A DNA stretch of 21,887 nucleotides, taken from IMG/VR virus record IMGVR_UViG_2534681878_000037; one strand, written 5' to 3'. Below, one piece after another: positions 21,001 through 21,887 of the stretch. This DNA comes from a virus (Duplodnaviria; Heunggongvirae; Uroviricota; Caudoviricetes). Position 1 is the first letter of the stretch. Each line of letters begins with the position of its first letter. The position numbers were made by a program.

Positions 21001-21887
21001 ATGATGAATATCAGTTCGTTATTCATGACGCCACGCATTGGATGAGAAAAGTATATCCAGCAGCACCGCAGCAGGATGGTGAATGATGCCGCCAGTTAAA
21101 GTTGTGATTATCACTTTGGTGATGATAGTGATTGCGAGAATCATGTCTGGTGAAATTGTGTGGATATGGTAATGGCTAAGGCAGCAGCAGAGCGCAACTA
21201 ACAATCCTCGCACTCGCGGGGATTTCTTTTATCTGAACTCGCTACGGCGAGTTTTGTTTTATGGAGACAAGAAATGTCAGATTTGGCTATGAAGGTTTTG
21301 AAATGGCAATCAACTGGCGATGTCGGCATCAGTAGCGCAACTCTTGCCTCAATCGCATGTGGCCTGAAAAAGAATATCTATGGTCATGGCTTCGGTGCTC
21401 CACATGACGCAGCCGATTTCAGACGATGCGTTGCACTTGTTGAGCAGATTCCAGAAATCAGAGATTCATTCGACAAGGTTGCAAAGCGCGTTCCGGCATT
21501 CAAAGGAATCCTCAACGAATGGGATTCCCTCGTTGCTCTGTTGAAGTCTGAAATGAAGATACACGGAAACAAAGCACCAGAGACTTACAGAAGAATCAGC
21601 GAGCTACGCAAGGACTAACGCCTCACACTCGATGAGGCCTGTTCATATCTGATAGAGCCGCTATATGGCGGTTTCTTTTTGCCTGGAGAATTAAGATGAC
21701 CGATACCAGCCTGATTCCTGAGAAAGAAGTGATGAACAAGCTCGGTGTTTCATCACGTCAGACAATCTGGAACTATACCAAACGGCACGGATTTCCGAAG
21801 CCAGTCAGAACCCACCCCAAATCATACCTTCGTGAAGCTGTTGAAGGGTGGATTCTTAACGGTGGCGTTAATCAGAAATGCTCCTGA

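Follow-up and report, generated by a model that had tools for sequence, protein, structure and literature searches.

What does the short ORF behind the DUF551-domain gene encode, if anything, at the right-hand end of a 21,887-nucleotide viral DNA (IMG/VR record IMGVR_UViG_2534681878_000037, the whole of which we call the window)? An earlier note on this DNA had proposed a translationally coupled small membrane peptide of toxin-like or Kil-like type, followed by two terminator hairpins. The coupling geometry, the helix character and the conserved reading frame of that proposal stand, but the toxin and Kil readings are not supported, and neither is a reading in which the terminators belong to the ORF. 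Here, the explanation that we favor, with about even confidence, is that this ORF (ORF29) is a genuine, young, and lineage-restricted gene for a small inner-membrane peptide in the exo-xis operon of E. coli and Shigella lambdoid prophages.

Genomic setting and the junction with the DUF551 gene

The window comes from the exo-xis (early-left) region of a Stx2c-type lambdoid E. coli prophage, and it matches Stx2-converting phages 1717 and 2851, as well as many O157:H7 chromosomes, at 100% identity. Judged from the PGAP annotation of one matching prophage, the plus strand is the early-left operon, with the gene order repressor … cIII, kil, gam, bet, exo, DUF1317, DUF1382, TraR-like, Ea22-like, …, DUF551, and xis, and with int convergent. 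It is this operon segment that the literature on lambdoid and Stx phages names the "exo-xis region" (PMC8614690, PMC3824215). In the otherwise matching prophage of O157:H7 TR01, exo (a YqaJ-type recombinase gene) is split by IS1203 (L160, 5232-6445), while the window exo is probably free of this element, judging by the lack of long minus-strand ORFs at the position projected from TR01.

The last 1.6 kb of the window carries on its plus strand a YfdT-like gene with a nonsense codon, the DUF551 gene, ORF29, a 30-nt spacer, two terminators, a phrog_1229 gene, and the start of an AlpA-type excisionase gene. The individual features are as follows.

20383-20739, plus strand: YfdT-like gene directly upstream of the DUF551 gene, interrupted in the window by a stop at 20515-20517 (W45 to stop, TGG to TGA)
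20736-21086, plus strand: DUF551-domain gene, 116 aa (Pfam PF04448, E=4.9e-10; PGAP 'DUF551 domain-containing protein')
21073-21082, plus strand: Shine-Dalgarno-like AGGA-U-GGUGA in the DUF551 coding tail
21083-21172, plus strand: ORF29, MMPPVKVVIITLVMIVIARIMSGEIVWIW, with 29 codons from ATG1 (21083) or 28 from ATG2 (21086), and TAA at 21170-21172
21172-21201, plus strand: nine-codon stump (MAKAAAERN, then stop) left from the deletion of a phrog_536 'transcriptional regulator' gene, the stump ATG overlapping the ORF29 stop (TAATG)
21203-21233, plus strand: intrinsic-terminator-like hairpin 1 (stem 21203-21224) with T-run, in a mosaic module at about 21199-21277
21235-21263, plus strand: intrinsic-terminator-like hairpin 2 (stem 21235-21254) with T-run, from the terminator scan
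21274-21618, plus strand: next operon gene, 114 aa, phrog_1229 (ORF and PHROG match), followed by the AlpA-type excisionase gene

The W45 nonsense codon of the YfdT-like gene is common to the window and phages 2851 and Stx2a_F349, while the gene is intact in O157:H7 TR01 and phage WGPS8; depending on the record, it is annotated as two halves or as a single gene.

ORF29 is thus present at 21083-21172 with the peptide sequence first proposed for it, and its ATGA overlap with the upstream gene is real, the ORF29 ATG occupying 21083-21085 and the DUF551 TGA 21084-21086 (gaATGAtg). The last DUF551 codons (…PQQDGE, then stop) hold both the Shine-Dalgarno (SD) sequence and the stop that overlaps the ORF29 start. 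With the 16S 3' tail, the SD duplex is predicted to reach 9 bp and -12.4 kcal/mol. Of the two in-frame starts, ATG2 at 21086 is, as read from the sequence, the better spaced from the SD, and it is also the better conserved, being kept in 71 of 75 copies (see below), while ATG1 is absent from 11. As for the start hexamer, 59 copies have ATGATG, 10 have ATAATG, and two have GTGATG; a 1-nt deletion in L007 and L017 recruits an upstream ATG, and L021 reads ATAATT, having lost both ATGs. An SD-like element (-7.6 to -16.2) is found in all haplotypes except the recombinant L013, despite heterogeneous upstream flanks, and takes the form AGGAGGTGA in L070 and L077.

The gene upstream of the various ORF29 copies is labelled as DUF551, Ea22-like, or dATP/dGTP pyrophosphohydrolase. 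Nonetheless, the flank itself is a diverged DUF551 C-terminus (…WMPLPEPPEQDGE, then stop) in every copy but L013, where ORF29 lies behind the anti-RecBCD (gam) gene, and so we regard ORF29 as tied to the end of the DUF551 domain. DUF551 has been described as a C-terminal domain that is portable (PMC10834534), in keeping with what we see here. Moreover, the DUF551 genes of 59 other loci (L080-L159) as a rule have the tail CAGGAGGTGAA and, after it, ATGA, GTGA, or TAATG, whichever gene comes next. This tail encodes the DUF551 C-terminal …PPQEVK/N/R and forms a near-perfect SD 3-7 nt before the junction. With the SD in its C-terminal codons and a stop/start junction at its end, the portable domain would carry its own translational coupler, and a frame that opens there is very likely translated whenever the mRNA exists.

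That same generality lends weight to the main competing explanation, namely that ORF29 is translated yet functionless, or else not meaningfully translated, and is a leftover spacer or de novo ORF conserved only through recent mosaic exchange. If the DUF551 tail is a generic coupler, any frame opening there would be read. The unstable start codons and the one copy devoid of an ATG also fit a functionless ORF, as do the pseudogene fragments and deletion scars that are plentiful in the region. Gene fragments are abundant around ORF29, which makes a meaningless leftover credible. We consider this explanation a serious one, though clearly short of an even prospect, and the evidence from conservation and composition bears on it from both sides.

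Distribution, reading frame, and peptide character

A 176-nt query centered on ORF29 found matches at 93-100% identity in 229 of 5426 complete E. coli genomes and in 10 phage records, while the plasmid search returned zero copies. From E. coli genomes, phage records, IMG/VR, and metagenomes, we assembled 77 copies in 46 haplotypes, 75 of them untruncated; the hosts among the copies found are E. coli and Shigella prophages only. That related prophages should conserve the frame had been named beforehand as a test, and each of the 75 untruncated copies does keep it open. Codons 3-29 are free of indels, though indels are present at 21069-21086 and in the terminators. The absence of indels and internal stops in 75 copies argues against a functionless ORF. 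All copies are, however, at least 93% identical in DNA, and with a divergence of 7% or less this frame-preservation test is a weak one. Such shallow divergence and the narrow distribution are, if anything, what a functionless ORF would be expected to display.

The pattern of substitutions is similarly equivocal. Among 16 site/allele events in codons 3-29, seven are synonymous, eight are non-synonymous, and one is a stop in the last codon (W29 to stop), against a synonymous expectation of about 24%. The one-sided p for the synonymous excess is 0.054-0.075, and 0.25-0.29 when the codons under an ascertainment-biased degenerate seed are left out. Frame 0 is the richest of the six frames in synonymous changes (7/16). 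Substitution density is 0.185 per nt in ORF29 versus 0.203 in the terminators. A ratio of non-synonymous to synonymous changes compatible with neutrality, together with an equal substitution density inside and outside ORF29, is consistent with the functionless explanation.

Composition points the other way. In a codon log-odds model trained on the long genes of the window, ORF29 scored 0.164 per codon, which is the best of the six frames and lies at the 21st percentile of real-gene windows. This score is above 94% of 67 spurious short ORFs, and the range for a 27-aa control family (described below) is 0.07-0.28. ORF29 also displays a 3-base periodicity, with a purine at codon position 1 in 23 of 29 codons and T at position 2 in 18 of 29. 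In the six frames of the window there are 56 ATG-ORFs of 25-35 codons, so an ORF of this size is by itself ordinary, but ORF29 tops all 56 in hydrophobicity. Both this rank and the coding score speak against a functionless ORF.

At the protein level, we saw no trace of a wider family. Two independent seeds, each leaving every third codon position free, gave 0 matches in 185,579 species-representative genomes, and in IMG/VR and metagenomes a third-position-free seed recovered only near-identical copies. A tblastn search against 50,697 phages returned just the same 10 records as the DNA search. From these empty seeds and the tblastn result, it follows that there is no protein-level family beyond the recent E. 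coli/Shigella DNA copies. Moreover, no family among the Pfam, NCBIfam, and PHROG profiles matches ORF29. A remnant of a longer membrane-protein gene was also considered and found unsupported, with no longer homolog in phages by tblastn and with the other two forward frames over the ORF29 stretch, as read from the sequence, shut within a few codons.

The ORF had been called invisible to 60-aa ORF cutoffs, but it is not wholly invisible. GenBank/nr already lists the exact peptide as a 'hypothetical protein' (BBC51094.1, GDL26295.1, STF23722.1, and STI73145.1) and occurs on at least 1000 contigs, with three nr variants on 293, 71, and 151 contigs. Entries for the exact peptide and its variants come from other pipelines (BBC51094.1, STF23722.1, SRY66074.1, SRN41510.1 from Shigella, and DAH57015.1 from a MAG). 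Still, ORF29 is annotated neither in RefSeq/PGAP nor in the phage records checked, and its being ignored by PGAP, PHROGs, and Pfam can be counted in favor of a functionless ORF. We found no publication containing the peptide sequence, and the literature on DUF551, EHEC ribosome profiling, and exo-xis ORFs makes no mention of such a peptide.

As for the peptide itself, the earlier note had it as almost entirely one transmembrane helix with a Trp-rich end. Membrane-helix character is evident (overall GRAVY 1.76; Kyte-Doolittle 19-residue mean 2.28), but the segment is shorter than that, with an uninterrupted hydrophobic run of 12 residues (V7-A18) between K6 and R19, and E24 further on. The Trp-rich end amounts to W27 and W29. 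Residue 26 varies among G, W, and V, the V of the window being restricted to O157 Stx2c-type copies. In L013, the N-terminal half is recombinant and the hydrophobic run is halved.

We also weighed whether this stretch acts as a non-coding element instead, be it an sRNA, a 3'-UTR-derived RNA that ends at the terminators, a type I toxin and antitoxin locus, or a DNA site bound by a protein. This would suit the conserved 130-nt module, which in most copies is followed by terminators, along with the palindrome GTGATTATCAC and the short GTGAT repeats (21104-21140) inside ORF29. These motifs may, however, simply reflect runs of Val/Ile/Met codons, and a repeat search found only short, chance-level pairs. 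No sigma-70-like promoter was found on the plus strand between 20700 and 21400. Promoter-like sites occur at chance level (1 versus 1.2 expected). The sole one, which would count in favor of a non-coding element, lies on the minus strand (21149-21122); there is no minus-strand terminator near ORF29. The best Rfam match scores 18 bits, the gathering threshold being 47. Folding of the plus strand gave a z-score of -1.21, with the two terminators as the only stable elements, and the minus strand gave +0.93, thus less stable than its shuffles. A 64-aa minus-strand ORF (21019-21213) was rejected as a candidate, being intact in just 12 of 77 copies. In seven loci, moreover, a coding gene takes the place of the terminators. 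All told, we regard a non-coding element as very improbable. The Rfam, fold, and promoter results, together with the operon-internal coupling, likewise speak against both an sRNA and a type I toxin-antitoxin locus.

The downstream junction and small membrane ORFs behind other DUF551 genes

Downstream of ORF29, the two hairpins with T-runs described in the earlier note are indeed present on the plus strand and exceed chance, with three terminator-like sites in 700 nt versus 0.6 expected. Nevertheless, most of the 3254 E. coli genomes matched by a larger query have the terminator module on its own, with no ORF29 beside it, and in the window the module is fused to the regulator stump at the joint …CAAC/TAACAATCC. 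Given a module found alone in thousands of genomes and this fusion, the terminators are a recombination or deletion scar adjoining ORF29 and not ORF29's own. The arrangement of the window is shared by 60 collinear copies, while L006, L025, L070, and L077 have terminator 1 and then another gene. In L134, L143, L146, L150, and L154, the left edge of the module (…TAACAATCCTCGC) is also joined to a stump, here of about 10 codons (MANLQLAVKGE…) and from another gene, which has 94 aa in its intact form. That one edge meets two different stumps suggests a recurrent deletion or recombination joint.

The intact form of the junction is preserved elsewhere. In L015, L042, L043, L054, L066, and L075, the ATG that begins the stump opens a full 112-aa gene that matches phrog_536 (E=1.2e-53), and in L055 the downstream flank is by alignment the same as in those six. 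At all seven loci, the junction between the ORF29 stop and the regulator ATG reads TGGTAATGGCT…, and ORF29 exactly spans the gap from the DUF551 stop to the phrog_536 start, overlapping both. So exact a two-gene fit, with overlaps at both ends, counts against a functionless ORF. The older arrangement would have been a coupled chain of DUF551, ATGA, ORF29, TAATG, and regulator, with ORF29 in the middle, from which in the window the regulator was deleted and the terminators joined on.

A different function can be drawn from the same junction: ORF29 might be a coupling uORF that relays ribosomes from the DUF551 gene to the phrog_536 regulator, and its copy in the window a relic left by deletion of the regulator. 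The overlap of the ORF29 stop with the regulator start in the seven loci, the nine regulator codons left in the window, and a weak amino-acid constraint are all compatible with such a relay. Yet about 60 of 77 copies are without the regulator and keep ORF29 open, and neither the extreme hydrophobic composition nor the 3-base periodicity would be needed for it. In addition, ORF29 occurs in only 10 of 50,697 phage records, none of those checked having a full-length regulator, from which we take the regulator to be independent of ORF29. A relay therefore strikes us as improbable, and we return to a small membrane-peptide gene as the preferred explanation.

Relevant to this are the other ORFs that occupy the same position. 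Behind many other DUF551 genes, we observed an unrelated, ATGA-coupled family of 27-28-aa ORFs with the pattern M[NS]WP[ED]AF..G.A.AVA..VYSICRWG. The members and the other membrane ORFs in this slot are as follows.

L085, L086, L089, L097, L101, L106, L119, L121, and L133, at about 1500-1560 of the locus: 27-aa family, with ATGA overlapping the DUF551 stop
L161 601-684 and L162 601-684: 27-aa family, about 200 nt upstream of hokD
L153, about 280-405: 41-aa membrane ORF MMNKCNALLYAMVIGFGLAAGIRVYIAWESLINLAWSAIRG (phrog_5525, E=7.6e-30), starting 4 nt after the DUF551 stop
L115, L117, and L136: hydrophobic proteins of 74-94 aa in the post-DUF551 slot

Decayed copies of the 27-aa family were seen in L122 and L141. 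The K-12 Qin and CPS-53 loci were checked, and they contain neither ORF29 nor the 27-aa family.

Ten distinct DNA versions of the 27-aa family encode eight peptides, with 14, 8, and 22 variable sites at codon positions 1, 2, and 3, respectively. Pairwise dN/dS is 0.13-0.47, with dS of up to 1.8. The family is unmistakably a selected coding gene under purifying selection. It is found in 1619 of 5426 complete E. coli genomes (about 30%), in up to seven copies, and also on plasmids of about 96 kb. Even so, it has no PGAP annotation and no Pfam, NCBIfam, or PHROG model, and we found no literature on it. ORF29 resembles this family in its ATGA overlap with the DUF551 stop and in the same SD-bearing tail, as well as in size class, a single hydrophobic helix, Trp near the C-terminus, and neglect by PGAP, Pfam, and PHROGs. 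The two differ in depth and spread, the 27-aa family being deeply diverged, clearly selected, and present in 1619 of 5426 genomes, whereas ORF29 is shallow, has a substitution pattern compatible with neutrality, and is present in 229. Homology between them was examined and rejected: hhalign gave a probability of 0.3%, and none of the invariant residues W3, G11, A15, A17, Y21, R25, and G27 is aligned.

In mosaic phages, non-homologous genes that occupy one slot often play analogous roles. The positional analogs behind DUF551 genes consequently raise the prior for a real ORF29, though they are no proof of it, and the existence of functional small membrane ORFs at the same position elsewhere counts against a functionless one. 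A broader generalization, which we put forward tentatively and consider rather doubtful, is that the DUF551 genes of enterobacterial temperate phages form two-gene cassettes, in which a C-terminal domain with a built-in ribosome-binding site and overlap would co-translate a very small membrane peptide with one helix. No fewer than three mutually unrelated families (ORF29, the 27-aa WPEAF…CRWG, and the 41-aa phrog_5525) might then be counted as such partners. If this were true, DUF551 proteins would have a functional partnership with a membrane micro-protein that annotation pipelines have almost wholly missed.

Proposed mode of action and comparison with known systems

With no promoter of its own, ORF29 would be transcribed from the early-left promoter after induction or infection. 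Ribosomes that end DUF551 translation at the TGA (21084-86) would restart at the overlapping ATG, more probably ATG2 at 21086, with the extended SD AGGA-U-GGUGA in the DUF551 tail aiding the restart. In the inner membrane, the 28-29-aa product is predicted to form one short helix (V7-M21) whose aromatic end (W-I-W) is interfacial. Our best guess is that it would be accessory to a membrane protein of the host or the phage, or else act with the co-translated DUF551-domain protein.

Were ORF29 translated and active, it would give the exo-xis region of Stx phages a component that acts at the membrane, and would be a further phage micro-protein missed by annotation. The exo-xis region influences lysogeny and prophage induction (PMC3824215, PMC4699033), and efficient stx expression requires prophage induction (PMC4195576), such that an active ORF29 might conceivably affect toxin release. 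Given its narrow distribution and non-essential nature, the stakes for ORF29 are modest. The recurrence of a DUF551 gene with a coupled tiny membrane ORF is the more interesting lead, in that it offers a handle on DUF551 function.

Among known systems, type I toxin peptides (Hok/Gef, Ldr, Ibs, TisB, ShoB, and ZorO) are about 18-50 aa, hydrophobic, and helix-forming, and ORF29 shares with them a small size and a strongly hydrophobic, helix-forming composition. Type I toxins are, however, independent units that have their own promoter and usually a structured leader along with a cis- or trans-encoded antisense RNA, while ORF29 is translationally coupled within an operon and has none of these features. 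Nor do the NCBIfam and Pfam toxin models show any similarity to it. We therefore consider the type I toxin-like label unsupported, since this operon-internal ORF has neither a dedicated plus-strand promoter nor the features of an antisense RNA, and gave no Rfam match.

The Kil-like label fares no better. Lambda Kil is an FtsZ-directed division inhibitor of the early-left operon, and, being small, non-essential, and made from the same early-left transcript, it does resemble ORF29. There is no homology between the two by Pfam or NCBIfam, though, and the ORF29 peptide matches no family. In TR01, this type of operon has a genuine kil at another place, annotated between cIII and gam, and ORF29 lies about 6 kb downstream of that position, next to xis. 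Moreover, Kil is not known to be a membrane-helix peptide.

Closer at hand are the characterized genes of the exo-xis region itself (orf60a, orf61, orf63, orf73, ea22, and ea8.5), which are non-essential and modulate the lysis/lysogeny decision (PMC8614690, PMC3824215, PMC10834534). ORF29 shares their region and presumably their early expression. Those described so far, however, are soluble DNA-, RNAP-, or protein-binding proteins, with no membrane peptide appearing in that literature. In its overall character, ORF29 comes near to the small inner-membrane regulatory proteins of bacteria (PMC12648545), which are likewise under 50 aa, have one helix, and were missed by annotation. Such proteins are often co-transcribed with a partner and have been validated by tagging or ribosome profiling, whereas ORF29 is known from its sequence.
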